Source: a virus
Lineage: Duplodnaviria > Heunggongvirae > Uroviricota > Caudoviricetes
Virus record (IMG/VR): IMGVR_UViG_3300013126_000009
DNA: 64,000 bases
Reading direction: 5' to 3' (one strand)
Part shown: piece after piece, positions 7,956 through 54,441 of the stretch
Layout of the letters: every line of letters begins with the position of its first letter
Position numbering within the stretch: the first letter of the stretch is position 1
The notes under the pieces: generated by a model
What the model was told of the DNA's origin: nothing
Database searches by the model: none
What the model saw: the letters and a program-made list of their open reading frames with translations, nothing else
Made by a program: the position numbers and the translations under genes

Positions 7956-8030
7956 GAAGGTGTGGGTGAGTTGGAATTAGCCACATGACTGCAAATCATG
8001 TTTACGTCAGTTCGAATCTGACCATCTTCT
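7956..8030 (+). tRNA. tRNA-Cys (GCA)
   Basis: Acceptor GAAGGTG/CATCTTC; anticodon arm CATGA-CTGCAAA-TCATG; T-arm GTCAG-TTCGAAT-CTGAC; enlarged, imperfect D-arm. Confidence 0.6.
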
Positions 8031-8037
8031 CAAGTAA

Positions 8038-8109
8038 GCCCCAGTGGTGTAATGGTTAGCGCTCCGTTTTTACATGGCGGGAGAACTGGTTCGATTCCAG
8101 TCTGGGGTA
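8038..8109 (+). tRNA. tRNA-Val (UAC)
   Basis: Acceptor GCCCCAG/CTGGGGT; anticodon arm CCGTT-TTTACAT-GGCGG; T-arm CTGG-TTCGATT-CCAG. Confidence 0.6.
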
Positions 8110-8118
8110 CAAAAAAAT

Positions 8119-8196
8119 GCGGGTATGCGGAAAGTTTGGTGAAGCCGAGCAGTCTTAGGAACTGCTGATTTGGGGGTTCGACTCCCTCTACCCGTA
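8119..8196 (+). tRNA. tRNA-Leu (UAG), atypical short variable arm
   Basis: Acceptor GCGGGTA/TACCCGT, A73; anticodon arm GCAGT-CTTAGGA-ACTGC; T-arm GGGGG-TTCGACT-CCCTC; 3-bp D-stem with 14-nt loop. Confidence 0.5.
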
Positions 8197-8221
8197 CAGA
8201 TAATGAGTTAATAAATTAATT

Positions 8222-8461
8222 ATGCGTGAAATTAAAAAAGTTGCATGGGATAAGTTCATTGAAACAATGGATTATGATTCTGACGTAAACAACTTCAAGT
8301 ATGACTTCAAATACATGACCAAAAACCATGGTAATGCCTTTATAGAATACTGTAAAAGTATGTGGGAAGCGAACGAAGGTATTCAAACAGAAGAAGAGTT
8401 TATGACGATGAACGCTAATATGCCAAAAGGCTTTTTTGATAAGGTAGTTAAGGGGAAGTGA
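8222..8461 (+). CDS. hypothetical protein located between tRNAs
   Basis: 79-aa ORF; its stop overlaps the start of the next tRNA. Confidence 0.35.
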   Translation: MREIKKVAWDKFIETMDYDSDVNNFKYDFKYMTKNHGNAFIEYCKSMWEANEGIQTEEEFMTMNANMPKGFFDKVVKGK

Positions 8462-8529
8462 TGGAAAGCTGGTGAAGCCTCTTTGACTTAAAATCAAAGG
8501 ATATACGGGTTCGACTCCCGTCTTCCCTA
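8452..8529 (+). tRNA. tRNA-Leu (UAA), atypical
   Basis: Acceptor GGGGAAG/CTTCCCT, A73; anticodon arm CTTTGA-CTTAAAA-TCAAAG; T-arm ACGGG-TTCGACT-CCCGT; D region homologous to the 8119 and 8541 tRNAs. Confidence 0.5.
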
Positions 8530-8540
8530 CTAAAAATTTG

Positions 8541-8617
8541 GGCGAGTGATGGAAAGCTGGTGAAGCCTCTTTACCTCAAAAGTAAAGGATATACGGGTTC
8601 GATTCCCGTCTTGCCCA
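8541..8617 (+). tRNA. tRNA-Leu (CAA), atypical
   Basis: Acceptor GGGCGAG/CTTGCCC, A73; anticodon arm CTTTAC-CTCAAAA-GTAAAG; T-arm ACGGG-TTCGATT-CCCGT. Confidence 0.5.
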
Positions 8618-8677
8618 CATTAATTAAATTTTAGTACATTTGTAGAATTACTAAACTATTTATTATAAAGTTCGCAA

Positions 8678-11480: not shown

Positions 11481-11553
11481 GTGGTGGTTACCAAGTTGGT
11501 CAAGGTGTCGCTCTGAAAAAGCGATAATGTTGGTTCGATTCCAACCCATCACA
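11481..11553 (+). tRNA. tRNA-Phe (GAA)
   Basis: Acceptor GTGGTGG/CCATCAC; anticodon arm TCGCT-CTGAAAA-AGCGA; T-arm GTTGG-TTCGATT-CCAAC. Confidence 0.65.
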
Positions 11554-11559
11554 CAAAAC

Positions 11560-11632
11560 GGTCCGTTCGACAAGTGGTTTAAGTCACCGCTCTTTCACAG
11601 CGGAGTCATGGGTTCAAATCCCATACGGACTA
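11560..11632 (+). tRNA. tRNA-Glu (UUC)
   Basis: Acceptor GGTCCGT/ACGGACT; anticodon arm CCGCT-CTTTCAC-AGCGG; T-arm ATGGG-TTCAAAT-CCCAT. Confidence 0.65.
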
Positions 11633-11686
11633 CTGAAAATATAGAGTTTTAAAGCCTTTTGACAATCTGGAAAGACGGATATTAAC

Positions 11687-11759
11687 GGACGCGAGGTGTT
11701 GTTGGTAACATACGGCCCTGTCACGGCTGAGATTGCGGGTTCAACCCCCGTGGCGTCCG
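11687..11759 (+). tRNA. tRNA-Asp (GUC)
   Basis: Acceptor GGACGCG/GGCGTCC (one mismatch); anticodon arm CGGCC-CTGTCAC-GGCTG; T-arm GCGGG-TTCAACC-CCCGT. Confidence 0.55.
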
Positions 11760-11784
11760 CCTAGACATATTTTTGGCACTTATT

Positions 11785-11857
11785 GTGGTGTTAGTTAAGC
11801 TGGCTATAATACTGCCCTTGCAAGGCGGAGTCATCGGTTCGAGGCCGATACGCTACA
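11785..11857 (+). tRNA. tRNA-Ala (UGC)
   Basis: Acceptor GTGGTGT/ACGCTAC including a G3:U70 pair (Ala identity element); anticodon arm CTGCC-CTTGCAA-GGCGG; T-arm ATCGG-TTCGAGG-CCGAT. Confidence 0.6.
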
Positions 11858-11876
11858 CTTTAAAATATTTATTATT

Positions 11877-13759: not shown

Positions 13760-15245
13760 TTTGTATATTTGTATTGTTCTTTGAAATTAAAACATTAAAG
13801 GTTCATTTCAGCAAATTCGTATTAACATCAAATTTTTTCTTTGAAGCAGTTAGAAACGTGAACCTGAAACTTACATAGAAAGTGGGTGGGATGAAAGCGA
13901 CAATAACAACATTAATTCAATAAATGTAAATAAATTTTATATTTTCTTTAAACTTTTTAATTTTTCTACATATTTATATATGATGTTGAAAGCTTTTAAA
14001 TATAGACTTAATCCGACTGAAGAACAAAAAGTTCTTCTGAATAAGCATATTGGTGCTTCTAGGTTTATATATAATTTAGCGTTGGAAACCAAACAAATAG
14101 CTTATGCTGGCAATAAACATAATCTTTCTTGTTTTGAACTGCATTCACAACTAAAAGAATTGAAAGAAGAATTGTCTTGGTTAAAGGAAATTAATTCACA
14201 ATCATTACAGCAAAGTATAACTAATTTAGATAAAGCATATACCGCTTTTTTTAAAGGTCAAAATTCATTTCCTAAGTATAAAAAGAAATCTAATGGTGGT
14301 AGTTTTAACATACCACAAAGAGTAAAAGTAGAAAATAATAAATTAATTATACCTAAATTCACAAAGAAAAATGGGTTAGATATTATATTACATAGACCAC
14401 TTAAAGGTGAAATAAGACAAGCAACAATATCTAAAACACCCACAGGTAAGTATTTTGTTTCCATTCTTTGTGAAACTGGTGAACAATGTAAACCTAAATC
14501 TAAGATAAAAGAAGAAACTACTATTGGTATAGACTTAGGAATTAAAGATTTCGTAATAACATCAGATGGTGAAGTATTTGATAACCCTAAGCACTTACGT
14601 AAAGCACAATCTAAATTAAAATACATACAGAGTAAGTATAGTAAAAATAAAGGAAAAAGAACAAAACAAAAATTAGCAAAGTTACATGAAAAAGTAACAA
14701 ATAAAAGAAAAGATTATTTGCATAAAATATCTTCTAAACTGGTTCGTGAGAACCAAACAATCAGTTTAGAAAATCTTGCTGTAAGTAATATGATTAAAAA
14801 TCATAATTTAGCACAAGCAATATCAGATGTAAGTTGGTCAACTTTTGTTAATATGTTAGAATATAAGTCTGAATGGTATGGAACAAATATACTTAAGATA
14901 GGTAGATTTGAACCATCATCAAAGACATGTTCTAACTGTGGTTATATTAATAAAGAACTAACGTTAAAAGATAGAGAATGGACTTGTGTTAACTGTAATA
15001 CTGAACATGATAGGGATATAAATGCGGCAATTAATATTAAAAATTTTAGTTTAAGAAATATTTTGTCAGGAACTGACAGAAAAAATCATGACGAACTGCC
15101 CACGTTAGTGGGAGTGCTGACTCATGAAGCCCAACCCATCGCCTCTGGCGTGGGTGGGTAGTTCACCGACCTCTCGAAGACCGATTGTTATTGTGGTGAT
15201 TGCGCATTGAATCACAAGAAAGACCGTAATGGCTCCCCTTCTTTT
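13760..15245 (+). mobile_element. IS605-family (IS1341-like) element carrying tnpB only; boundaries approximate
   Basis: tnpB plus a GC-rich 3' segment GCCCACGTTAGTGGGAGTG...GGCGTGGGTGGGTAG...AATGGCTCCCCTTC (15100-15245) consistent with an RE/omega-RNA scaffold. Confidence 0.5.
13980..15161 (+). CDS. tnpB: IS200/IS605-family transposase accessory protein TnpB (OrfB)
   Basis: OrfB N-terminal helix-turn-helix region; C-terminal zinc finger CSNCGY...CVNCN; typical size; no tnpA adjacent. Confidence 0.8.
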   Translation: MMLKAFKYRLNPTEEQKVLLNKHIGASRFIYNLALETKQIAYAGNKHNLSCFELHSQLKELKEELSWLKEINSQSLQQSITNLDKAYTAFFKGQNSFPKYKKKSNGGSFNIPQRVKVENNKLIIPKFTKKNGLDIILHRPLKGEIRQATISKTPTGKYFVSILCETGEQCKPKSKIKEETTIGIDLGIKDFVITSDGEVFDNPKHLRKAQSKLKYIQSKYSKNKGKRTKQKLAKLHEKVTNKRKDYLHKISSKLVRENQTISLENLAVSNMIKNHNLAQAISDVSWSTFVNMLEYKSEWYGTNILKIGRFEPSSKTCSNCGYINKELTLKDREWTCVNCNTEHDRDINAAINIKNFSLRNILSGTDRKNHDELPTLVGVLTHEAQPIASGVGG

Positions 15246-15309
15246 TTTTTTAACATATTTATAATAAATAAGAATTCGATAGTATCATATATTAGATGAT
15301 TAAATCGAA

Positions 15310-15661: not shown

Positions 15662-16192
15662 ATGAAAAAAAACGATGACGATTTCTTTGGTGATATGTTC
15701 GGTGACGGATTTGATGATGATTTTATAAGAGGTTTTGGTGGTTTCGGTTCATTCCTTAAAGGGTTTAGGGAACACCACTTCAACGACAAAGAAGATTTGG
15801 GTGAACCAGATTCAGTAAGGGAGTTTAAACAAGATGGTCACACTTTTATTGAAAAAATATGGAATACACCAACAGGTAAAGTTAAAATCATTGAGTCAAC
15901 CAACATTAACATTGAGAATGATGATTTTGATATTGAAAGTATAACAGATTATGATTCATTGGGTATTAATATGAATGATATTGAAGACTTCTTTTCATTT
16001 GTTAGCGGGATGGGTTCGGCTAATAGGAAACCTTTTAAAAATCGAGAAATAACCAAAGAAGAAAAACTTGACCTATTGACTACCAAGTTGCAGTATTGTG
16101 TTGATACCGAAAACTATGAAAGAGCTGCTAGACTTAGAGATATGATAGCTGAACTTAAAGAAGAAAAAAATTCAGAAAAAAGTGAAAAATAA
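15662..16192 (+). CDS. acidic protein with C-terminal UVR (UvrB/UvrC-like) motif
   Basis: ...ENYERAARLRDMIAELKE resembles the UVR-domain consensus; start taken at the ATG after the TTTGTGTATATTTGTA box. Confidence 0.4.
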   Translation: MKKNDDDFFGDMFGDGFDDDFIRGFGGFGSFLKGFREHHFNDKEDLGEPDSVREFKQDGHTFIEKIWNTPTGKVKIIESTNINIENDDFDIESITDYDSLGINMNDIEDFFSFVSGMGSANRKPFKNREITKEEKLDLLTTKLQYCVDTENYERAARLRDMIAELKEEKNSEKSEK

Positions 16193-16199
16193 TTTGGTG

Positions 16200-16688
16200 A
16201 TATGAAAAATAATCACTATATTTGTATCATCGTTCTTTGACAATATTATAAAGGTAGGCCGATAGCAGTTTAATGGCGAGGCAGCATCGTCCACATTTCA
16301 GGTTGCCACCATGCAACTGGTGCTGAGTGTGTAGGCCACCTATTTAGAATTATGGTTGTTTGGTACAAGTTAAGTTGAAATTGCTTTTATGAAAACTAAA
16401 AATTTCACCGAGGCCATCAACCGTAACATATTTTGACTCATCCAATTGGTTTTATAATATTAAAATTCATCTGTTTCAGCAGACAGTACTTTCAGTTATG
16501 AAGTTCCGAAAAGAGATGGTCTGGAGCTGCCATCAAAGTATAGCCCGACACCAAAGGGCGTTGTCTGTTTGAAAGTGTGGTTACCATTAACTCAAAATGG
16601 CATCTGGTACACCTAGTAATATGATTACTGTGAAAGGGATTCAGATTAACTGCATCCTCCTGTGGTGGGAGGCAGATGATAATTTCAT
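16200..16688 (+). ncRNA. candidate structured non-coding RNA (relatively GC-rich, ORF-free, hairpin-rich)
   Basis: Follows the promoter TATATTTGTATC at 16218. Local hairpins CCACC-ATGCAACT-GGTG, CTGT-TTCAGCAG-ACAG, CCTCC-TGTGGTG-GGAGG. No ORF of 60 aa or more on the plus strand. Confidence 0.35.
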
Positions 16689-16818
16689 AGTCAGGTGGCG
16701 GAATTGGTAGACGCTAAAAAAGATAATGGTGTAGATTACACAAGATTGAGGAATTAAGTTTCCAAAGGTATCGGGAAAATATAACTACACTGTACAGGTT
16801 CGAATCCTGTCCTGACTA
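16689..16818 (+). ncRNA. tRNA-like element A (130 nt; tRNA acceptor/D/T framework with long internal insertion)
   Basis: AGTCAGG-TG-GCGGAATTGGTAGACGC ... ACAGG-TTCGAAT-CCTGT-CCTGACT-A, perfect 7-bp acceptor pairing, about 78 nt between D-arm and T-arm. Confidence 0.5.
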
Positions 16819-16951
16819 CAATTCAATTGACGTTAAAACCATATACAATGGGAGTCACCGATGTGTCTAAGTTAGAGGTACACTAACACAAATCACATTG
16901 ACAACAGTTATCGGAGAGGAAATGGAAACCCTCATTGAATTTTTTAAACGG

Positions 16952-17075
16952 TCAGTCGGTGTATTGGCGAAACACAGATTGGTAACAAGTGTCGGTAATC
17001 AAGACGGGTGAGTAACGCGTAATAAGCCCTGAGAGAAAAACACACCTCATCTTATAAAGGTTCGAATCCTTTACT
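16952..17075 (+). ncRNA. tRNA-like element C (~124 nt) with long internal insertion; coordinates approximate (+/-2)
   Basis: GGTCAGT-CG-GTGT-ATTGGCGAA-ACAC ... AAAGG-TTCGAAT-CCTTT-ACTGACC-A; acceptor complement perfect. Confidence 0.45.
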
Positions 17076-17280
17076 GACCACAAGCCGTTTTTTAGTCCTC
17101 GTCCTATGAGACTATTGTTTAACGAGATGAAACAAATGTTGTATAAAGGGGTTTAGGTAAGTTTTCCAGAAAACTGTGGTCCTTTTCCTTACCGAAGGAG
17201 TTTTCAGACCTAAACTCAAAACTCAAACGACAGTAAAGAAGTAGGGACAAACGGGAGCGGCTTACTCCCGTCCCGAATAT

Positions 17281-17383
17281 AGTCAGGTGGCGGAATTGGT
17301 AGACGCATAATACCCTACATTGTGGGTAAAAGAATAAGGTCATTAGATGATACTTCATATAGGTTCGAATCCTGTCCTGACTA
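17281..17383 (+). ncRNA. tRNA-like element B (103 nt); ends identical to element A, interior different
   Basis: First 26 nt identical to element A, last ~24 nt near-identical. Interior has an anticodon-like arm ATAAT-ACCCTAC-ATTGT (CCU) and a 35-nt extra arm. Confidence 0.5.
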
Positions 17384-17387
17384 CGAG

Positions 17388-17490
17388 CTTAAAACTAAAA
17401 CTGAATGGTTGTCAGTTTTCGGTTCCGCTTTGTTTTACGGGGGTTCGAATCCTTCAAGATTGGTTGGCATAGGTGGGTTCGACTCCCACC
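17388..17490 (+). ncRNA. two degenerate or truncated tRNA-like sequences (D-armless; acceptor+T-arm minihelix)
   Basis: GGGGG-TTCGAAT-CCTTC and GTGGG-TTCGACT-CCCAC T-arms with partially paired acceptor strands (GATTGGT/CCCAATC). Confidence 0.3.
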
Positions 17491-17536
17491 CCAATCTAAA
17501 TTTAATTTTAAAATTTAAAAACATAAAAAAGATAAT

Positions 17537-17923
17537 ATGACATTAACCGTAGTTTTTTTAGTTCTTATAACCCATTGGTTTGCTGATTTTGTGTTACAAA
17601 CTGATAAACAAGCTAAAGGTAAAAGTAATAATTGGCGTGACTTATTAGCGCATACCAGTACATATAGTTCGGTATGGTTACTTGTTAGTTGTATACTTTT
17701 TGGTTTAATGTCAGGTGGACACACAACTAATTGGTACGTATTGAATTCAATAATGTTCACCTTAATCACATTTATATCACATACAGTTACTGATTATTTT
17801 ACTAGCAGACTAAACTCAAGGTTGTGGGCAAAAGGTGACGTGCATAATTTTTTTGTTAGCGTTGGTTTTGACCAAGTATTACATTATGTACAATTGTTTT
17901 TAACCTTAATGCTACTGTTGTGA
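17537..17923 (+). CDS. hypothetical membrane protein
   Basis: 128 aa with about 4 hydrophobic segments. Confidence 0.4.
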   Translation: MTLTVVFLVLITHWFADFVLQTDKQAKGKSNNWRDLLAHTSTYSSVWLLVSCILFGLMSGGHTTNWYVLNSIMFTLITFISHTVTDYFTSRLNSRLWAKGDVHNFFVSVGFDQVLHYVQLFLTLMLLL

Positions 17924-17978
17924 AATCAAAAAAATTACTATATTTGTAAGGTGATTAAAGAAAAAATGTTCGATAGGA

Positions 17979-18026
17979 GTACCTGTCCTAGCGGTTCGTA
18001 ACCGCCCTATTGAATTATAAAAACCA
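17979..18026 (+). ncRNA. minihelix-like tRNA fragment (acceptor stem + T-arm only)
   Basis: CGATAGG ... GCGG-TTCGTAA-CCGC-CCTATTG-A. Confidence 0.3.
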
Positions 18027-18116
18027 AATTAGGAAAGTTACTTGTGGAAAGGACGGACAGGAGGGTGGCCAATACGTAAGGCCTTTGGGGTTCGAATCCC
18101 ACGGTTTGGTTTTTAA
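18023..18116 (+). ncRNA. tRNA-like element D (~93 nt)
   Basis: Acceptor CCAAATT/GGTTTGG (2 G-U pairs), T-arm TGGGG-TTCGAAT-CCCAC, internal hairpins; anticodon not assignable. Confidence 0.3.
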
Positions 18117-18123
18117 TAATATT

Positions 18124-18211
18124 GGTTGTGCGGACGCAATGGGCCGTAAACGGTGCAAATCCGTTTAATCAGAGGTGAGAAGCCTCAAGTGGTTCGTAGC
18201 CACCACAACCA
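18124..18211 (+). tRNA. type-II-like tRNA (anticodon loop TGCAAAT, CAA?, Leu-like), possibly a pseudogene
   Basis: Acceptor GGTTGTG/CACAACC perfect; anticodon arm AAACGG-TGCAAAT-CCGTTT; long variable-arm hairpin GAGG-TGAGAAG-CCTC; unusual T-loop TTCGTAG (no A58). Confidence 0.35.
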
Positions 18212-18276
18212 CAAAATTAATTTAATATGGGTTTTTTAGCCAAAGGTAAACGAACTGAAAAAAAAAAACATAATTA

Positions 18277-18567
18277 ATGAACAAACTATTAGCAAGATTA
18301 AAAATTGCATTTGATGCATTATTCAATCGTGACCGAATGATGGTCGTATACGTTACCGAAGAAGAATTGACAGGACTATTATCTGGTTCTGAGGATAGTT
18401 TTGAGATGGCAATAACCTACTTTGGGCTGACCGAAGAAATGACAAGATTAATTTTAAGTCACTTAGGTGATAATATCGATAGAGATAAGGAATGGGAACG
18501 GCTACATGAAAAATACGAGCAATATAAAATCGATAAAGATTTAGAAAAATTCGTTGGTAAATATTAA
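18277..18567 (+). CDS. hypothetical protein
   Basis: 96-aa ORF. Confidence 0.4.
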   Translation: MNKLLARLKIAFDALFNRDRMMVVYVTEEELTGLLSGSEDSFEMAITYFGLTEEMTRLILSHLGDNIDRDKEWERLHEKYEQYKIDKDLEKFVGKY

Positions 18568-20285: not shown

Positions 20286-20360
20286 ACGGGAGGTTATGCA
20301 GATGGCTATACAACGGTACCTTGGACGTATCGGTTCGTGGGTTCGAATCCCACTCTCCCG
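20286..20360 (+). tRNA. tRNA-Pro (UGG)
   Basis: Acceptor CGGGAGG/TCTCCCG; anticodon arm GGTAC-CTTGGAC-GTATC; T-arm GTGGG-TTCGAAT-CCCAC; odd D region. Confidence 0.5.
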
Positions 20361-20398
20361 ACATTAATCCCGACAAATTGTCGGGATAATAATTAAAT

Positions 20399-20471
20399 TG
20401 CCCTGTGGTGTAATTGGGAACACGTCTGTTTTTGAAGCAGAAGAGTCTAGGTTCGAGACCTAGCGGGGCAA
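20399..20471 (+). tRNA. tRNA-Gln (UUG)
   Basis: Acceptor TGCCCTG/CGGGGCA; D-arm GTGT-AATTGGGA-ACAC; anticodon arm TCTGT-TTTTGAA-GCAGA; T-arm CTAGG-TTCGAGA-CCTAG. Confidence 0.65.
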
Positions 20472-20547
20472 CTTGACTTTAGAGATAAAGCGTGATGTCA
20501 TATTATAGATAACGCACAGGCTCTAATTATAAAAATAATACAAAATA

Positions 20548-20620
20548 GGGGAATCGCCCAGGGTTGGTCGGACGCTCTGTAAAAGCGAACCGCAATATAG
20601 TTCGAGTCTATTGTTCCCCA
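20548..20620 (+). tRNA. tRNA with anticodon GUA (Tyr?), type-I-like
   Basis: Acceptor GGGGAAT/GTTCCCC; anticodon arm (A)CGCT-CTGTAAA-AGCG(A); T-arm TATAG-TTCGAGT-CTATT; imperfect D-arm. Confidence 0.45.
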
Positions 20621-20628
20621 CAATTAAT

Positions 20629-20700
20629 GCACCCATAGTTTAGTTGGGAAAACGGTAGATTTGTAATCTTCAGTCCTCAGTTCAAGCCTGAGTGGGTGCT
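20629..20700 (+). tRNA. tRNA-Thr (UGU)
   Basis: Acceptor GCACCCA/TGGGTGC perfect; D-arm GTTT-AGTTGGGA-AAAC; anticodon arm GTAGA-TTTGTAA-TCTTC (one mismatch); T-arm CTCAG-TTCAAGC-CTGAG. Confidence 0.65.
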
Positions 20701-20715
20701 CAGTTGATTTTTTTT

Positions 20716-20789
20716 GCCGCATAGGTGTTACGGCAGCACATCTGACTTCCAATCAGAAGGCGAGAGTTCGACTCTCTCATGCGGCTCCA
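20716..20789 (+). tRNA. tRNA-Gly (UCC), CCA encoded
   Basis: Acceptor GCCGCAT/ATGCGGC perfect; anticodon arm TCTGA-CTTCCAA-TCAGA; T-arm GAGAG-TTCGACT-CTCTC; 3' T-CCA present. Confidence 0.7.
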
Positions 20790-20797
20790 TTTTAAAT

Positions 20798-20872
20798 TCC
20801 CTCATAGGTTCAATTGGTTTAGACTACTTAACTTTTAATTAAGGGGTGCTGGTTCGAGTCCAGCTGGGGGAA
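20798..20872 (+). tRNA. tRNA-Lys (UUU)
   Basis: Acceptor TCCCTCA/TGGGGGA; anticodon arm CTTAA-CTTTTAA-TTAAG; T-arm GCTGG-TTCGAGT-CCAGC. Confidence 0.65.
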
Positions 20873-20914
20873 CAAAAATTTGTTTATTAATAAAATAATT
20901 TATATATTTGCTCT

Positions 20915-34489: not shown

Positions 34490-34990
34490 ATGTCTAATAA
34501 GATAAACGAAGAAATTAAATTTAAAACCGTTAGGTTGGTCGGTGACAATGTTGATAGTACTAAAGATGGTATAATGACAATTGAATCGGCAATGCAATTA
34601 GCTGAAGATATGGGTATGGACCTTGTACTTATGAGTGATAGTACAAAACCCGTTATCTGTAAGATTATGGATTACAGCAAATTCCAATATAATAAGGAAA
34701 AGAATAAACCAAAGAGTAAACCTAAACCTATAAAGGAAATGCGGTATACACCAAATACTGATGAGAATGACCTTAAATTTAAGTTAAATCATGTCATAAA
34801 GTTTCTCGAAAAAGGTCATAAAGTTAAAGCCTATGTAACCTTTAAGGGTCGGGAAATGAATTATCAAGAACAGGGTCAAAAAATACTATTGGATTTGCTC
34901 GTTCAGGTTGAAGAGTATGGTATTGCTGAAAATGTACCTAATTTTGAAGGTAATAAATATATAGTAGTAATTAAACCAAAAAATAAATAA
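34490..34990 (+). CDS. infC: translation initiation factor IF-3
   Basis: VRLVGDN...GIMTIESAMQLAEDMGMDLVLMSDSTKPVICKIMDY and a C-domain typical of InfC. Confidence 0.75.
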   Translation: MSNKINEEIKFKTVRLVGDNVDSTKDGIMTIESAMQLAEDMGMDLVLMSDSTKPVICKIMDYSKFQYNKEKNKPKSKPKPIKEMRYTPNTDENDLKFKLNHVIKFLEKGHKVKAYVTFKGREMNYQEQGQKILLDLLVQVEEYGIAENVPNFEGNKYIVVIKPKNK

Positions 34991-42752: not shown

Positions 42753-43352
42753 ATGGCTAAAAACCAAAAAATTATAAAGATTTGCACTGAAAAGTTTATA
42801 TTTTTGAATTACTCGAAAAGAACTAGTGATATATATCTATGCTATATCAAGCAATTTTTAGATAGTTTAAACGATATACAAATAATCCATTGTAATTCAA
42901 AACATTTCCAATATTTCATTGATAATTATAAATTCACGTCTATATCACAACAAAACCAAGTTATCAACGCAATCAGGTTCTTATATAAGTACGGTTTGAA
43001 CAAAAAATATGATAAAGTAAGTTTCAAACGTCCTAAAAAAGAAAAGAAACTACCTCGTGTTATTGACGGTGATGTTCTAAAACAAAAAATTGAAACAATC
43101 ACAAATATTAAACATAGAACAATCCTCACATTAGCATATTCAGTAGGTTCTTGTCAAAGAATATTTAAAAAATATATTGATAATGATAAGTCATTCCATA
43201 GCCTGAGACATTCATGTTTTACTAATTTGTTGGAGAACGGAACAAACCTTCGGACAATTCAAGTGATAGCAGGGCACTCATCATCAAAAACTACAGAAAT
43301 ATACACACACATTTCAAAAAAAGCGTTAGAAAACGTTGTATTACCTATTTAA
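42753..43352 (+). CDS. compact tyrosine recombinase (phage-integrase family), possibly truncated
   Basis: N-terminal SAM-like core-binding region; C-terminal HSLRHSCFTNLLENGTNLRTIQVIAGHSSSKTTEIYTHI (H-x-x-R ... H ... Y catalytic motif). Only 199 aa; the segment between box I and box II is missing. Confidence 0.6.
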   Translation: MAKNQKIIKICTEKFIFLNYSKRTSDIYLCYIKQFLDSLNDIQIIHCNSKHFQYFIDNYKFTSISQQNQVINAIRFLYKYGLNKKYDKVSFKRPKKEKKLPRVIDGDVLKQKIETITNIKHRTILTLAYSVGSCQRIFKKYIDNDKSFHSLRHSCFTNLLENGTNLRTIQVIAGHSSSKTTEIYTHISKKALENVVLPI

Positions 43353-46667: not shown

Positions 46668-46965
46668 ATTATTAACAGTATCTTTTTTACTACCAATTTT
46701 TGCTTTTGCTCAAAGCATGGATAAAGATACTAAGAAAGATATTATGACCAGTGGAATAGTTGTCACAACTGGTGGCGTTGCTTTGACAATCGGTTCCGTT
46801 TTCACAGCTTCAGAACTTCAAATGGTCAATGGTAGATGGCAAACAATGCCAATATATAAACAAGATGCTAGATTTGCTGGCGTAATAACTGGATGTACAA
46901 TAACAGCGTCTGGCGTACTGTCAATGATTTTGACTCACGAACCAAAAACCAAACGAAAACGATGA
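46648..46965 (+). CDS. hypothetical secreted/membrane protein
   Basis: N-terminal signal-like MCQKIIKLLTVSFLLPIFAFA. Confidence 0.35.
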   Translation: MCQKIIKLLTVSFLLPIFAFAQSMDKDTKKDIMTSGIVVTTGGVALTIGSVFTASELQMVNGRWQTMPIYKQDARFAGVITGCTITASGVLSMILTHEPKTKRKR

Positions 46966-47363
46966 GGAAATTATTTTTAGATGATATACGTGAACCTATT
47001 GGTGCCTTTCATTTGGTACCAAATGAAAGTAAACATCTATATTTGGAGGATAATTGGATTTTAGTTAGGTCTTATTTGGAATTTGTGGAATACATTAAAA
47101 ATAATGATTTTCCAGATTTAATATCTTTTGACCATGATTTGTCAACTGACCATTATCAAATCGATTTTGATGATTGGGAAAGTTTTTCTTCAGAGCAATT
47201 AGGCGTTGAAGAAACTGGTTTAGATTGTGCTAAATGGTTGGTGAATTATTGTGAAGAAAATAATTTGAAGTTGCCAGAATTTGTTGTACATTCGCAGAAT
47301 CCTGTTGGTAGAAAAAATATAGATATGTACCTAAAAAACGCTATTAAACATTTAAACCTTTAA
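46962..47363 (+). CDS. hypothetical protein
   Basis: ORF; start at internal ATG 46962 to avoid a 70-nt overlap. Confidence 0.35.
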   Translation: MRKLFLDDIREPIGAFHLVPNESKHLYLEDNWILVRSYLEFVEYIKNNDFPDLISFDHDLSTDHYQIDFDDWESFSSEQLGVEETGLDCAKWLVNYCEENNLKLPEFVVHSQNPVGRKNIDMYLKNAIKHLNL

Positions 47364-53721: not shown

Positions 53722-54441
53722 ATGGGAAATAAAAAAGATTCATTGGGTGACCGTATGAAGGAATTCTATGAGAATAGAACAAGAACCTTTCTACCTAGAA
53801 GGACTTATACGATAATACGCATTGACGGAAAAGCTTTTCACACATACACTAGAGGTCTTGAAAGACCATTTGATTGGAAATTGGTGAATGATATGGATGA
53901 AACCGCAAAGTACCTATGTGAAAATATTCAAGGTGCCAAATTTGCATTTGTTCAAAGTGATGAGATTTCAATTCTTTTAACTGACTTCAATGAACTAACA
54001 ACCTCAGCTTGGTTTGATGGTAATGTTCAAAAAATGGCGAGTATTTCAGCTAGTTTGGCAACAGCTAAGTTTAACCAACTTAGACCAAAAAAATTGGCAA
54101 TGTTTGATAGTCGCGTATTTACCATTCCGACAGCAGTTGAAGTTGAGAATTACATGATTTGGAGACAACAAGATACTGTTAGAAATAGTATCTCGTCAGT
54201 TGCACAATCTTTATACAGTCATAAAGAACTTAATGGTAAAAACACCAATCAAATGCAAGAAATGTGTTTTCAAAAGGGCGTTAATTGGAATGATTTTGAC
54301 CCAAAACTTAAAAGAGGTCGATTAATCGTTAAAGAAAACTACGATAAAAATGGGTCAACGAGAAGTCGATGGGTTAGTATAGCACCACCAGTTTTTACCC
54401 AAGAACGAGAATATTTTAATAATTTAATACCAAAACAATAA
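53722..54441 (+). CDS. Thg1-like protein (tRNA-His guanylyltransferase / 3'-5' nucleotidyl polymerase family)
   Basis: YTIIRIDGKAFHTYTRGLERPFD...AKFAFVQSDEISILL parallels the Thg1 motifs VVRIDGRNFHKF...FGESDEYSFIL. Confidence 0.7.
   Translation: MGNKKDSLGDRMKEFYENRTRTFLPRRTYTIIRIDGKAFHTYTRGLERPFDWKLVNDMDETAKYLCENIQGAKFAFVQSDEISILLTDFNELTTSAWFDGNVQKMASISASLATAKFNQLRPKKLAMFDSRVFTIPTAVEVENYMIWRQQDTVRNSISSVAQSLYSHKELNGKNTNQMQEMCFQKGVNWNDFDPKLKRGRLIVKENYDKNGSTRSRWVSIAPPVFTQEREYFNNLIPKQ

Follow-up and report, generated by a model that had tools for sequence, protein, structure and literature searches.

The RNAs described below have several partial counterparts among known systems. Bacteriophage T4 encodes, inside its tRNA cluster, the species 1 RNA (rnaC) and the species 2 RNA (rnaD), which are stable RNAs of about 120–140 nt and do not decode, and rnaC combines a canonical T-arm (CCGGG-TTCGAAT-CCCGG) with an acceptor-like stem around a large structured interior. 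In all of these respects, the T4 RNAs resemble the family reported here. In tmRNA, likewise, the two ends of the molecule form the acceptor stem and the T-arm around a large functional insert; the likeness would extend to maturation by tRNA enzymes and to charging by a synthetase that ignores the anticodon. The bacterial Y RNA-like YrlA and other tRNA mimics are non-coding RNAs that copy the tRNA elbow (T-arm and D-arm) for tRNA enzymes, and they occur in phages. In engineered tRNA scaffolds and in the tRNA–miRNA units of the gammaherpesvirus MHV68, a tRNA-like shell gets an unrelated RNA processed by tRNA enzymes and stabilized.

How does the present locus compare with these systems? The window, by which we mean the whole 64,000-nt stretch of Caudoviricetes DNA that was analysed, contains two segments, 16193–17536 and 17924–18276, in which the ORF list holds only short frames (79 aa or less) overlapping the RNA elements and in which the source assembly calls no genes. 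This agrees with the first-pass annotation, which had seen no credible ORF in 16.2–17.53 and 17.93–18.25 kb. The sole protein gene within the region, already noted there as a membrane protein, was identified as a DUF3307 gene; its product is about 40% identical to KVP40-like Vibrio phage proteins, and its relatives elsewhere show no linkage to RNA islands. The GC content is 0.35–0.45 over 16.2–17.5 kb and 0.385–0.455 in the 200-nt windows spanning 17.9–18.2 kb, as compared to 0.22–0.33 in most of the flanking coding DNA. The window contains 17 copies of the T-loop motif GGTTCGANTCC, where 1.24 would be expected, and six of them lie in 16.7–18.1 kb, outside the called tRNAs. ARAGORN places tRNA clusters on either side (7956–8618, 11481–11858, and 20287–20873) and finds three Leu tRNAs in the window. 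We read the gene-free stretch as an island of genes for small structured RNAs: besides three elements, A, B, and C, it holds a conserved hairpin, minihelix-like units, an RNA that we call F-G, and an orphan tRNA-like RNA, H (Table 1).

Table 1. Features of the RNA island, in order of position
Feature	Coordinates	Strand	Basis
Putative Bacteroidota-type −7 promoter box CTATATTTGTA, matching TAnnTTTG	16216–16226	+	Motif
ORF-free, GC-richer leader	16240–16688	+	GC 0.35–0.445
Element A, 130 nt, tRNA-Leu chassis with 78-nt cargo	16689–16818	+	Exact family ends
Spacer between A and C	16819–16949	+	Motif comparison; z = −1.0
Element C, 131 nt, same architecture, covarying frame	16950–17080	+	Rfam tRNA model; generic acceptor/T-arm scan
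Hairpin just upstream of B, GGGAC..CGGGAG-loop-CTCCCG.TCCC, then GAATAT	17244–17274	+	z = −2.22
Element B, 103 nt, chassis as in A with unrelated 51-nt cargo	17281–17383	+	Exact family ends
Hairpin (17397–17419), then overlapping minihelix-like units (17413–17463 and 17457–17498)	17397–17498	+	Inspection, fold
DUF3307 membrane protein gene, 128 aa	17537–17923	+	Pfam PF11750, E = 2.3e-9
Second exact copy of the putative promoter box	17938–17948	+	Exact 11-mer
F-G RNA, about 145 nt	17969–18112	+	Conservation in IMG/VR loci, RNAalifold
Element H, orphan tRNA-like RNA	18124–18210	+	z = −3.50; 1 of 200 shuffles folds as well

Elements A and B start with 28 identical bases (16687–16714 = 17279–17306) and agree at 26 of the last 27, while BLAST detects no similarity between their interiors, so that the combination of same ends and unrelated interiors reported in the first-pass annotation holds. 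Element A matches the family exactly at both ends (5′ end AGTCAGGTGGCGGAATTGGTAGACGC, 22-nt 3′ end), and both of its halves are among the top matches of our chassis model R1. In its minimum-free-energy (MFE) fold (z = −2.35), a long interior stem is enclosed by the acceptor stem, part of the D-arm, and the T-arm; the element is missed by ARAGORN and by the Rfam tRNA model. The cargo of B consists of a hairpin with an 8-nt loop and a long bulged hairpin; the Rfam tRNA model scores this element at 37.4 bits, with 33 interior nucleotides skipped. The frame of C reads GGTCAGT...ACTGACC-A, with the D-stem GTG/CAC and the T-stem AAAGG/CCTTT; its covarying acceptor stem is in accord with the earlier description of the same layout with different ends. 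The model reaches 32.1 bits on C (E = 3.6e-4) only by skipping 69 interior nucleotides. Neither B nor C is called by ARAGORN in the default mode. Of the Rfam models proposed for comparison in the first-pass annotation, the tRNA model passed its threshold on B and C with the interior skipped, and the tmRNA and group I intron models were not matched. A, B, and C are not ordinary tRNAs or tmRNAs.

At least 120 viral metagenome contigs contain the exact 22-nt 3′ end of A and B, with up to seven copies per locus, as do only 18 of 185,579 species genomes, all 18 of which are MAGs and about half Bacteroidota; among 50,697 phage records, no exact family member was found. Depending on the extraction rule, we obtained 142–213 distinct members with lengths continuous over 54–196 nt; because exact-match seeds were used to collect them, part of the apparent constancy of the 3′ end follows from the sampling. 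Retained in the shell are the acceptor stem AGUCAGG/CCUGACU, U8, the bacterial tRNA-Leu D-arm GCGGAAUUGGUAGACGC, U48 (158 of 184 representatives), the T-arm ACAGG-UUCGAAU-CCUGU, and the discriminator A73, with G18G19, A14, A15, and the T-loop nearly invariant across the family. Covariation across related phages, suggested earlier as a check, was found at 14 of the 15 chassis pairs, which show double, compensatory changes, and whole frames covary between lineages (GCTTTGG, GGACAGG, GGTCAGT). The chassis cells are paired in 99.6% of cases versus 31–43% with slid partners, a fraction partly guaranteed by the way in which the sequences were gathered. These patterns indicate that the RNA fold of the chassis is under selection.

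The family elements sit on the coding strand, between genes or in arrays with real tRNAs, and in 59 of 222 cases a canonical tRNA is no more than 500 nt away. A C stands at position 74 in 208 of 213 elements versus 263 of 290 canonical tRNAs of the same loci, CAA/CTA trailers and AT/TT leaders (positions −2/−1) are common to both, and CCA is not encoded. No protein family is consistently linked to the elements, the best-linked one being present in only 14 of 149 loci. A, B, and, with its compensated frame, probably C belong to a large family that appears to be confined to phages; a phage RNA family with a tRNA-Leu-like shell and a changing interior is apparently undescribed.

The cargo replaces the anticodon and variable arms, is 20–130 nt long, and varies between copies. 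The 273 distinct elements yield 236 unrelated interior types, 206 of them singletons, and no motif common to the cargos was found. The median interior measures about 53 nt, as compared to 30–40 nt for the arms replaced, in compact genomes. Compared with random genomic segments of the same length, the interiors show a modest excess of structure (mean z of −0.62 versus −0.15, p = 3e-6), and a search in cis and within the window found no target complementarity. The same cargo is 77–97% identical across contigs whose flanks are at the background identity of 52–65%, with one exception at 77%. Conversely, at one orthologous site in eight loci, with flanks 83–96% identical, the family chassis (with minor D-arm differences) encloses six unrelated cargos (16–58% “identity”) in elements of 90–160 nt. 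Of these cargos, one is met again in different surroundings (L222 versus L028); elsewhere, a single cargo occupies two different acceptor frames (L040 versus L119). The interior behaves as an exchangeable cassette. For the cargos of A, B, and C themselves, no homologue turned up in the sample.

What else does the island contain? The 11-mer at its start also occurs exactly at 17938, 27470, and 51424, with one-mismatch copies upstream of many plus-strand genes; matches number 89 against 58.6 expected, and none of 100 shuffles attains 89. From its match to the known Bacteroides consensus, we take the box to be a probable promoter. The copy at 16216 probably starts a transcription unit with A, C, B, and the DUF3307 gene, and that at 17938 would probably start a second unit with the F-G RNA and H. 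The first-pass annotation had described 16200–16688 as hairpin-rich and comparatively GC-rich. The GC part stands (0.35–0.445), but the structured part does not: the stretch folds no better than shuffled sequence (MFE z = −0.83 as a whole; −0.64, −0.01, −1.43, and −0.92 in sub-windows). For the leader, no Rfam match rose above noise, and neither the phage records nor about 330 fetched loci contained similar DNA. The spacer between A and C might conceivably be a diverged copy of a recurrent RNA that lies beside family elements in other phages, with which it has the CTAAGTTAGA core in common. In L118, a B-like element is likewise preceded by a homologue of the hairpin upstream of B, and the stems differ by compensatory changes (GGGAA/TTCCC, GGGAG/CTCCC).

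The minihelix pieces downstream of B exist as first described. Each unit joins an acceptor-type stem to a T-arm, without a D-arm or anticodon arm; 17413–17463 was recovered by the generic scan, 17458–17497 scores 23.2 bits with the model R1, and no homologue of the units in 17397–17498 was found. By contrast, the supposed separate fragments at 17970–18013 and 18023–18113 turned out to be one conserved RNA, F-G, in which a 5′ hairpin domain and an A-rich linker precede a tRNA-like 3′ domain, which comprises a T-loop and closing stem. This RNA is present in eight IMG/VR loci (five distinct sequences, counting the window), and RNAalifold gives 35 pairs, nine of them with compensatory changes; as read from the alignment, CCTGT(C/T)C also pairs over a long range with G(G/A)ACAGG, the window and the remaining sequences differing by covarying changes. 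In other loci, AGTCAGG-frame elements flank it. The last element, H, is indeed the type-II-like tRNA with an abnormal T-loop noted earlier, with the acceptor stem GGTTGTG/CACAACC, a hairpin with the loop UGCAAAU, a long extra arm, and the aberrant T-loop TTCGTAG. It stays below the Rfam tRNA model even at E ≤ 10, and an exact 18-mer scan found no relative in viral contigs.

We lean towards the view that A, B, and C are genes for non-decoding, tRNA-shaped small RNAs, which would be matured like tRNAs and would combine a tRNA-Leu chassis with a variable functional cargo. The large phage family, the conserved, covarying tRNA shell, and the non-decoding interior support this reading, which was among those first raised (tRNA-derived ncRNAs or decoys). 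ARAGORN calls only 37 of 222 family elements, with scattered anticodons, and the shortest members have 3–4-nt loops in place of the anticodon loop. The boundary with true tRNAs is not sharp, because a few same-frame members look like ordinary tRNAs (for example, Lys-UUU in L028).

We propose that the elements share transcripts with their neighbours; in the window, such a transcript would start at the putative Bacteroidota-type promoter at 16216. RNase P would free the 5′ end, the tRNA 3′ pathway would trim the other end, CCA would be completed, and the L-shaped top half with its elbow would confer stability on the matured RNA. In E. coli, the leucine determinants are A73, A15:U48, G18G19, and A20a, and tRNA-Leu remains chargeable without the anticodon and variable arms (PMC9976931). 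By these E. coli LeuRS rules, from which those of Bacteroidota may differ, the elements may be leucylated, because all known leucine identity elements are kept and none lies in the replaced part. The function would be carried by the cargo, with host-interaction or anti-defence RNAs as the leading guess. This guess fits a phage with an unusually rich tRNA-repair kit (a Thg1-like protein, NTase, Rnl1, HAD_SAK phosphatase, and cREC in the window; the phage also encodes a second RNA ligase and phosphoesterase and phosphatase domains), and these genes are a plausible context of the elements. The near-identical chassis halves could double as portable homology arms, by which cargos would be swapped between elements and between phages.

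Might the interior instead be a tolerated spacer, and the elements processing or stability signals at which RNase P and the tRNA 3′ pathway cut, thereby separating and stabilizing adjacent mRNAs or spacer RNAs, in the manner of mitochondrial tRNA punctuation? Many elements do fill intergenic gaps (55 of 213 lie 0–20 nt from the upstream stop codon, and 56 of 213 lie 10–30 nt from the downstream ATG), their flanks equal those of real tRNAs, and the units at 17413–17498 lack cargo; the cargos are mostly singletons without a common motif or detectable targets. We nevertheless consider this unlikely: a neutral spacer should shrink in compact phage genomes, whereas the interiors exceed the arms replaced, fold better than random DNA, and, where alike, are conserved between background flanks. 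Moreover, any tRNA would do as a signal, which leaves the near-invariant, dedicated chassis without explanation. The chassis itself could be the active part, as a decoy or sponge whose acceptor stem, elbow, and CCA end absorb a host factor or a tRNA-targeting defence toxin, with a cargo that varies because it is not recognised. Candidates are nucleotidyltransferase, acetyltransferase, or pyrophosphokinase toxins acting on acceptor ends, or LeuRS. Within the main family, the acceptor and T-arm sequence is indeed kept beyond pairing needs, genomes carry several copies, the window encodes the above menders of tRNA ends and breaks, and an element lies directly upstream of the TLP gene in four TLP loci. 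However, these four are the only ones among 64 in which an element adjoins the gene, a weak link to TLP and repair genes; the frames covary between lineages, no toxin or host is on record to go with the elements, and conserved cargos in unrelated contexts and interiors longer than those of a tRNA are not accounted for. We judge this reading to be distinctly unlikely.

The remaining readings are far less probable. Inserts removed by self-splicing, or by an endonuclease and the phage heal-and-seal ligases, would make the elements intron-containing genes for tRNA-Leu or other tRNAs, as the first-pass annotation had suggested. B and C pass the Rfam tRNA threshold, the phage encodes the ligases, phosphoesterase, and phosphatase domains listed above, and the ARAGORN intron mode gives B as Leu(aag) with a 21-nt intron and, at a relaxed threshold, A as Ser(gga) with a 52-nt intron. 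These models are forced, however, with A.A or A.C mismatches in the anticodon stems and the variable arm almost absent. Group I intron and ribozyme models have no match here or in 17 related loci, inserts of 20–130 nt are too short for group I, the 54–72-nt members have no intron space, tRNA calls across the family are few with random anticodons, and the phage already has Leu tRNAs; we find introns very improbable. Just as little credence is due to DNA recombination sites, in which the inverted-repeat ends and symmetric T-arm would act as attC-like or tRNA-gene att-like sites, or as mere homology arms, with the RNA fold a relic. This would suit the cassette-like behaviour (the same context with different interiors, the same interior in different contexts), the element-ORF-element-ORF arrays in L245, L065, and L157, the 54–190 bp lengths with conserved inverted ends, which resemble attC, and the small tyrosine recombinase encoded at 42753–43352. 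However, three helices kept paired by compensatory changes and the conserved tertiary-contact bases (U8, A14, G18G19, U48, T-loop) are RNA constraints, the elements invariably lie on the transcribed strand, they have no linked recombinase, and the interior moves independently of both flanks, so the swapped unit is not a gene cassette. Least credible of all is the decay of tRNA-Leu pseudogenes in a tRNA-rich phage genome, although the region sits between tRNA clusters and some units have a degenerate appearance (the minihelices, H, and the B-like L118 copy with its broken acceptor stem). Neutral decay cannot hold more than 50 end positions identical in hundreds of contigs with unrelated interiors, every helix covaries, and cargos are conserved across unrelated contexts. 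Decay is rejected at the family level, and the initial argument against it, from identical ends and divergent interiors, was right and is much strengthened by the hundreds of same-end members.

Returning to the known systems, T4 rnaC differs from the family in having no recognisable D-arm and no AGUCAGG-frame similarity, and Rfam tRNA-type models stay below threshold on it; the T4 RNAs are single copies, whereas the family has one multi-copy chassis with many cargos, and rnaC and rnaD are not known to undergo cassette exchange. The family frame is Leu-like (A73, full tRNA-Leu D-arm), as compared to the Ala-like tmRNA (G3:U70), and its interior, unlike that of tmRNA, can be as short as 20 nt and is not conserved; ARAGORN found no tag reading frame or tmRNA, and the Rfam tmRNA model hit only T-arm-sized fragments (11–15 bits against a threshold of 47). 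YrlA ends in a Ro-binding stem with the tRNA-like part apical, a permuted topology, and the Rfam YrlA model had no match in the region at E ≤ 10 nor, at the gathering threshold, anywhere in the window or in 17 related loci. As in class II bacterial tRNA-Leu, A73, U48, and the T-loop are retained in A and B, and positions 8–25 are identical to the D-arm region of E. coli tRNA-Leu; tRNA-Leu genes of cultured phages match this D-arm part. In contrast to tRNA-Leu, A, B, and C lack a 5-bp anticodon stem with a 7-nt loop, and are 103–131 nt long instead of about 85–89 nt; in A and B, the first pair is A1-U72. Integron attC sites and gene cassettes share with the family the conserved inverted ends, a variable centre of about 50–140 bp, many variants per site, and the same variant in different contexts; integrons exchange a gene with its site, whereas the family exchanges the interior of an RNA gene under RNA-fold constraints, and no integron integrase is linked to the elements. 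We found no natural bacterial or phage example of tRNA-scaffold expression in the literature; the engineered scaffolds are artificial, and MHV68 is a virus of eukaryotes that relies on RNA polymerase III. Its cargo comes after the tRNA-like unit, whereas the family cargo takes the place of the anticodon arm. By analogy, the family appears to work like tRNA-scaffold expression.

Most of what the first-pass annotation had noticed at 16.2-18.25 kb is real. No credible ORF lies between the end of the UVR-motif gene at 16192 and the DUF3307 gene, the sole protein gene inside the island (17537-17923), or from there to the gene at 18277; the short ORFs that are present (<=79 aa) overlap the RNA-like elements, and both stretches are also empty in the gene calls of the source assembly. 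The GC content of the region (0.35-0.45 versus 0.22-0.33 in most of the adjoining coding DNA) is elevated, as claimed. The tRNA-like elements A and B have common ends, with 28 identical bases on the 5′ side and 26 of 27 on the 3′ side, and a BLAST comparison detected nothing shared between their interiors. The third element, C, has the same layout, with the acceptor stem changed on both strands in step (GGTCAGT/ACTGACC versus AGTCAGG/CCTGACT). The window contains 17 copies of the T-loop word GGTTCGANTCC versus 1.24 expected, and six of these are located in this region, outside any called tRNA. The stretch 16200-16688, described as hairpin-rich, folds only at the level of shuffled sequence (z = -0.83 overall, and -0.01 to -1.43 in sub-windows), and a search for its relatives detected none. 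The pieces 17970-18013 and 18023-18113, formerly regarded as separate fragments, both belong to one RNA, hereafter called the F-G RNA.

Which known class of RNA could accommodate A, B, and C? All three possess the outer parts of a canonical tRNA (a 7-bp acceptor stem, a D-arm with G18G19, and a T-arm with a UUCRANY loop). Their lengths, 130, 103, and 131 nt for A, B, and C, respectively, exceed the canonical ~70-95 nt, and none has a regular anticodon arm (5-bp stem, 7-nt loop containing U33); the best interior hairpin of B has an 8-nt loop. The Rfam tRNA model exceeds its threshold for B (37.4 bits) and, when the search is restricted to the region, for C (32.1 bits), and these RF00005 alignments cover model positions 1-71 at both ends while skipping 33 interior nt of B and 69 of C; the model does not report A. 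Of the 14 tRNAs that ARAGORN calls across the window in its default mode, none is located in the region, leaving A, B, and C uncalled. The elements were thus rejected as ordinary tRNAs, since the ARAGORN and Rfam gathering searches fail, or pass only when the interior is skipped. Run in intron mode, ARAGORN yields forced models: Leu(aag) with a 21-nt intron for B and, at a relaxed threshold, Ser(gga) with a 52-nt intron for A. A short protein-spliced intron was rejected because these models of A and B have anticodon stems with A·A or A·C mismatches and appear at relaxed thresholds only. Since the models either skip the interiors or carry mismatched anticodon stems, neither ARAGORN nor Rfam resolves A, B, and C as ordinary tRNAs with standard short introns, the resolution that would have counted against the first-pass annotation. 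A group I intron in a tRNA gene would need ~200 nt or more with a core, while the inserts are 20-130 nt and have no core match; Intron_gpI and the other ribozyme models gave no match in the window and 17 related loci at the gathering threshold, or in the region at E <= 10. ARAGORN in tmRNA mode finds no tmRNA even at 90% thresholds, and the Rfam tmRNA model reaches 11-15 bits against a threshold of 47, on T-arm fragments only. No intron, ribozyme, tmRNA, Y-RNA, or other Rfam family was matched in the region or in the 17 related loci.

Two observations concern tRNAs elsewhere in the window. A 73-nt tRNA-like sequence with a T-arm (GGGGAAT...TTCCCC-A; 20548-20620, in the third tRNA cluster) is missed by ARAGORN and the Rfam gathering search. 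The Leu tRNAs at 8452-8529 (UAA) and 8540-8617 (CAA) are 78 nt each, lack a long variable arm, and may be type-I-like tRNA-Leu; ARAGORN and Rfam differ by 10 nt in the 5′ ends of both.

A, B, and C belong to a family of RNAs that we define by the AGUCAGG frame on a tRNA-Leu chassis. The 5′ half, AGTCAGG-TG-GCGGAATTGGTAGACGC, is exact in A and B, and compensated in C (GGTCAGT, with the D-stem GTG/CAC). The 3′ half, U48-(A/G)CAGG-TTCGAAT-CCTGT-CCTGACT-A followed by C74 without an encoded CCA, is found in all three: A and B both contain the exact 22-mer GGTTCGAATCCTGTCCTGACTA, B has one U·G pair in the T-stem, and C has AAAGG/CCTTT and ACTGACC-A. Base 74 is C in each case (CAA after A, and CGA after B). 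Beyond the frames, the interior of A has no match in that of B, and both are dissimilar to the interiors of other members. The three elements are located on the + strand inside the ORF-free island, in a window with all genes on that strand and a GC content of ~30%.

How widely is this family distributed? The first viral scan, with the tRNA-Leu D-arm word alone, was too generic and mostly returned true tRNA-Leu genes; it also surfaced other frames with the same architecture, and a locus (L065) with three elements that have the A/B ends and different interiors. The 22-nt 3′ end GGTTCGAATCCTGTCCTGACTA occurs in at least 120 viral contigs, and as many as 6-7 copies can be clustered in a few kb. 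The distinct members number 142-213 among the matches listed, depending on the extraction rule, and their lengths are continuous from 54 to 196 nt. Since the members were gathered from these matches by exact-word seeds, the family size is a lower bound, and the invariance of the seed regions arises partly by construction. The covariance model of the chassis (R1) cannot span long inserts and splits A and B into halves, and was left out of the counting. Among 185,579 species genomes (one genome each), GGTTCGAATCCTGTCCTGACTA is present in 18 contigs, all 18 from metagenome bins, about half of which are assigned to Bacteroidota (Chitinophagia/Chitinophagaceae, Sediminibacterium, Flavobacterium, Saprospirales/Saprospiraceae, and Bacteroidia). 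The abundance in viral contigs and these few occurrences in species genomes therefore identify the frame as phage-associated, rather than a host tRNA. The 50,697 deposited phage records contain no exact family member.

Relatives of the DUF3307 gene were followed in 80 viral and 80 metagenome loci, and these do not contain the island; viral contigs yielded no relatives of the upstream UVR-motif gene, and the exact-protein look-up retrieved only the window's own contig, one identical fragment, and one 97.6% identical fragment. Therefore, A, B, C, and the stretch at 16.2-16.69 kb have no orthologue at intermediate divergence in these searches. In a 97.6% identical locus from another sample (L329, logan SRR20819203), ~400 bp with a 150-aa ORF are inserted precisely at window position 18262, a short distance upstream of the gene at 18277.

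The chassis is constrained at the RNA level. The first-pass annotation had proposed a covariation analysis across related phages; in an alignment of 50 sequences with the end halves joined, 14 of the 15 chassis pairs have changes on both sides that keep the pairing, and the covariation score is 0.51 versus 0.17 in shuffles. The paired fraction of the chassis cells, 99.6% versus 31-43% with slid partners, is partly guaranteed by the collection method, while the count of compensated pairs is not. U8, A14, A15, G18, G19, and the T-loop are near-invariant, and a U precedes the T-stem in 158 of 184 representatives. Chassis positions 8-25 equal the bacterial tRNA-Leu D-arm, and it is precisely this stretch that tRNA-Leu genes of cultured phages match. 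E. coli LeuRS requires A73, the A15:U48 pair, G18G19, A20a, and the D/T-loop contacts, and can dispense with the anticodon and the variable arm, as a truncated tRNA-Leu without both is still charged (PMC9976931). All of these identity elements are inside the conserved shell, and none is in the replaced part. Because the shell retains every one of them, leucylation of the elements may be possible, by analogy with the rules of the E. coli enzyme. In other lineages, the same architecture is built on other acceptor stems (GCTTTGG, GGACAGG, GGATAGG, and TGTCAGG), and one cargo, as we call the variable interior, is found in two frames (L040 and L119; cargo identity 97%). The minus strand of a 359-kb jumbo-phage contig (L067, IMGVR_UViG_3300015606_001334) carries several non-Leu tRNA frames with GCTCAGTGGTAGAGC-type D-arms and 50-100-nt insertions after the D-arm; these may represent interrupted or expanded tRNAs as a separate case.

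The cargos are extremely diverse. The interiors of 273 distinct elements form 236 clusters, and 206 of these, including the cargos of A, B, and C, are singletons. The cargos have no k-mer motif in common, the enrichment being weak, and in the consensus fold of two mixed cargo sub-families only the chassis remains. The complementarity between the cargos and their own 60-nt flanks is no higher than for shuffled cargos, the reverse-complement matches of elements A, B, C, E, F, G, and H in the window are no longer than those of shuffles, and the cargos have no match in the non-element DNA of the fetched loci. As compared with length-matched random genomic segments, the interiors fold somewhat better (mean z of -0.62 versus -0.15, p = 3e-6). 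Because their median length (~53 nt) exceeds the 30-40 nt that they replace, in compact genomes, this is not the behavior of a neutral spacer.

Five cargo groups are 77-97% identical between contigs, while their 150-nt flanks are 52-65% identical, equal to the background, with one exception at 77%. The reverse arrangement is found at a hypervariable orthologous site, where the 200-nt flanks are 83-96% identical across eight loci. All eight have the family chassis with minor D-arm differences, and it holds six unrelated cargos (16-58% nominal identity) in elements of 90, 93, 97, 110, 133, and ~160 nt; L178 has a second element in tandem. The order at this site is a stop codon, the promoter box TAGTATATTTGCATT, the tRNA-chassis element, ~30 nt, and a conserved 215-aa gene (phrog_29822). 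The cargo of L222 reappears in a different context in L028, and the pairs L006/L076 and L018/L040 behave in the same manner. Because the same cargo occurs in different contexts and the same context contains different cargos, the interior is exchanged much faster than the surrounding genome diverges, and independently of either flank. The simplest mechanism would be recombination within the two near-identical chassis halves. This two-sided cassette behavior is the most telling result of the analysis.

The family elements are located on the gene strand, starting within 20 nt of the upstream stop codon in 55 of 213 cases and ending 10-30 nt before the downstream ATG in 56 of 213; a canonical tRNA is present within 500 nt of 59 of the 222 elements. 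Position 74 is C in 208 of 213 elements, as compared to 263 of 290 tRNAs of the same loci, and the elements and these tRNA genes alike have A or T after C74, an unencoded CCA, and AT or TT at positions -2/-1. Because the flanks match those of real tRNA genes in the same loci, they point to maturation in the manner of tRNA genes, which would involve RNase P, 3′ trimming, and CCA completion. Exact copies of CTATATTTGTA are located at 16216 and 17938, directly after the two flanking genes. This word is found at many + strand gene starts, and it matches TAnnTTTG, the -7 box of Bacteroides. The boxes at these positions suggest that the region is transcribed as two units (16.24-17.92 kb, and from 17.96 kb on) and that the host belongs to the Bacteroidota.

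The region contains further RNA-like features (see the table). Both pieces of the F-G RNA occur in the same order in eight viral loci. Its consensus fold has 35 pairs, nine with compensatory changes, and in the alignment CCTGT(C/T)C and G(G/A)ACAGG form a long-range pairing, with covariation between the window sequence and the rest. In other phages, AGTCAGG-frame elements are located on both sides of this RNA, which has no Rfam family. In Element H, a hairpin whose loop reads UGCAAAU is accompanied by a long extra arm and by an aberrant T-loop (TTCGTAG); no relatives turned up in a scan with exact words, leaving this element an orphan. A ~100-nt RNA-like unit recurs after or between family elements in L091, L111, L127 (~736, - strand), L129, L070, and L206, with the pattern ..AAGTACCCATAC..GGGCTAAGT(T/A)AGATACAATTCC..GGGAGTAGAATGCTTAAGAG.. 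and the closing pair ACTTAAG/CTTAAG; the spacer between A and C in the window has only the CTAAGTTAGA core in common with it. Immediately 5′ of family elements in L144, L152, L133, L092, L233, and L151 is the short conserved hairpin TGAC(A/G)-GCTCG-GAAAGA-CGAGC-AA(C/A)AT, with compensated variants including GCACG/CGTGC and GCCGG/CGGC.

Coordinates of the features, in the window unless a fetched locus (L-number, mostly viral metagenome contigs) is named
Feature	Location	Remarks
Element A	16689-16818	
Element C	16950-17080	
Hairpin before B	17244-17274	z = -2.2; kept with compensatory changes in L118
Element B	17281-17383	
Minihelix-like units	17413-17498	No relatives
F-G RNA	17969-18112; L118 6597-6746 (-); L330, L331, L335	Conserved structured RNA of ~145 nt; tRNA-like 3′ domain
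Element H	18124-18210	Strongest fold of the region, z = -3.5; tRNA-like closing stem
Hypervariable orthologous site	L188, L215, L178, L212, L222, L204, L165, L139 (e.g. L222 4006-4138, L204 4249-4345)	
HAD_SAK_1	1133-1741	
Rnl1	1771-2925	
IF3	34490-34990	Full-length homologue
cREC_REC	46893-47363	
Thg1-like protein	53722-54441	3′-5′ polymerase homologue

The RNA-repair and translation set of this phage is unusually full, comprising an Rnl1-type ligase, a second RNA ligase, a HAD "Swiss-army-knife" phosphatase, three metallophosphoesterases, a nucleotidyltransferase, a cyclic-phosphate-processing receiver domain, a Thg1-like protein, IF3, and a YqeY-like protein. This set makes a role of the elements in conflicts over tRNA attractive. 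The one direct link detected is weak: of the 64 loci retrieved for Thg1-like genes, which viral contigs commonly contain, four have an element directly upstream of the gene. A TnpB/IS605 OrfB-type gene (13980-15161, +), with HTH_OrfB_IS605, OrfB_IS605, and Cas12f1-like TNB domains, lies ~1 kb upstream of the island; at 15000-15300 the GC content jumps to 0.42 across the 3′ end of this gene and ~150 nt beyond it, the expected place of a guide (omega) RNA.

The evidence best supports a reading in which A, B, and C are small RNAs that do not decode; built on a tRNA-Leu chassis, they would mature like tRNAs and carry their function in the exchangeable cargo. On the same sequence evidence, the elements would be transcribed, processed, and stable, and might be charged. 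Intron-containing tRNA genes are not supported as an explanation: ARAGORN calls just 37 of the 222 family elements, with scattered anticodons. The short members have GNRA-type or 3-4-nt loops in place of the anticodon loop. If the elements were DNA recombination sites, similar to integron attC, the paired ends and the exchange of interiors would be at home in them, but the covariation is of the RNA type and no protein family is linked near the elements (among 1,907 clustered ORFs of 148 loci, each family is present in 14 loci at most); the small tyrosine recombinase of the window is 25 kb away. Decaying pseudogenes were also weighed, and rejected at the family level. The elements could instead act as punctuation only, or the chassis itself as a decoy, and either role could coexist with a function of the cargo.

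A broader version of the small-RNA reading, tentative and in our estimate rather unlikely as a whole, is a natural "tRNA-chassis display" in phages, probably of freshwater Bacteroidota. The near-invariant, LeuRS-compatible shell would express, process, and stabilize a huge, rapidly swapped repertoire of structured RNA cargos, and the chassis halves would be recombination handles that let cargos pass between elements and co-infecting phages. The cargos would be arms-race effectors, such as decoys, aptamers, or sponges that counter defence systems or systems that damage tRNA, and the mature RNAs may bear leucine.

The main reading, with its exchangeable cargo on a constant chassis, predicts non-decoding RNAs that are leucylated or, failing that, CCA-tipped, a connection to the tRNA-repair genes that can be tested, and a compact chassis reusable for RNA expression in Bacteroidota. 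If expressed, the family would be among the largest and most diverse phage small-RNA families so far, and would demonstrate that RNA, and not just protein, can form the part of the accessory content of phages that evolves at arms-race speed. Current annotation hides such elements, which ARAGORN and Rfam either overlook or report as weak tRNAs or "tRNA-Undet", and ORF-free, GC-richer stretches of AT-rich phage genomes can be dense small-RNA islands.

A full-text search of the literature found no description of such a family, and a 2023 survey of viral structured RNAs contains generic tRNA-like candidates only. The closest known objects are the T4 species 1 and 2 RNAs, stable RNAs of a tRNA cluster, and the family offers a handle on the purpose of such phage RNAs. 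T4 rnaC has a T-arm and a closing stem, but the generic T-arm is all that it shares with the family, as rnaC has neither a D-arm nor identity to the frame. The tmRNA has the same topology, but every specific tmRNA test failed here, and the YrlA-type tRNA mimics have a permuted topology and no Rfam match here. A cultured relative of the phenomenon is found in the Tenacibaculum phage pT24, a Bacteroidota jumbo phage (NC_049383, 191.4-192.5 kb; L401). Its ~1.1-kb ORF-free island behind a TATATATTTGCA box contains a suppressor tRNA and two near-identical "tRNA-Undet" genes (GGTTGTA...TACAACC-A), with a 3-nt loop on the central hairpin that takes the place of the anticodon arm; pT24 is a possible experimental model. 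In the way it works, the family resembles the engineered tRNA scaffold, of which a constant tRNA shell with exchangeable interiors would be the natural counterpart. We rate the elements as a known kind, tRNA-like non-coding RNAs, with a new property: one chassis with many rapidly exchanged cargos.
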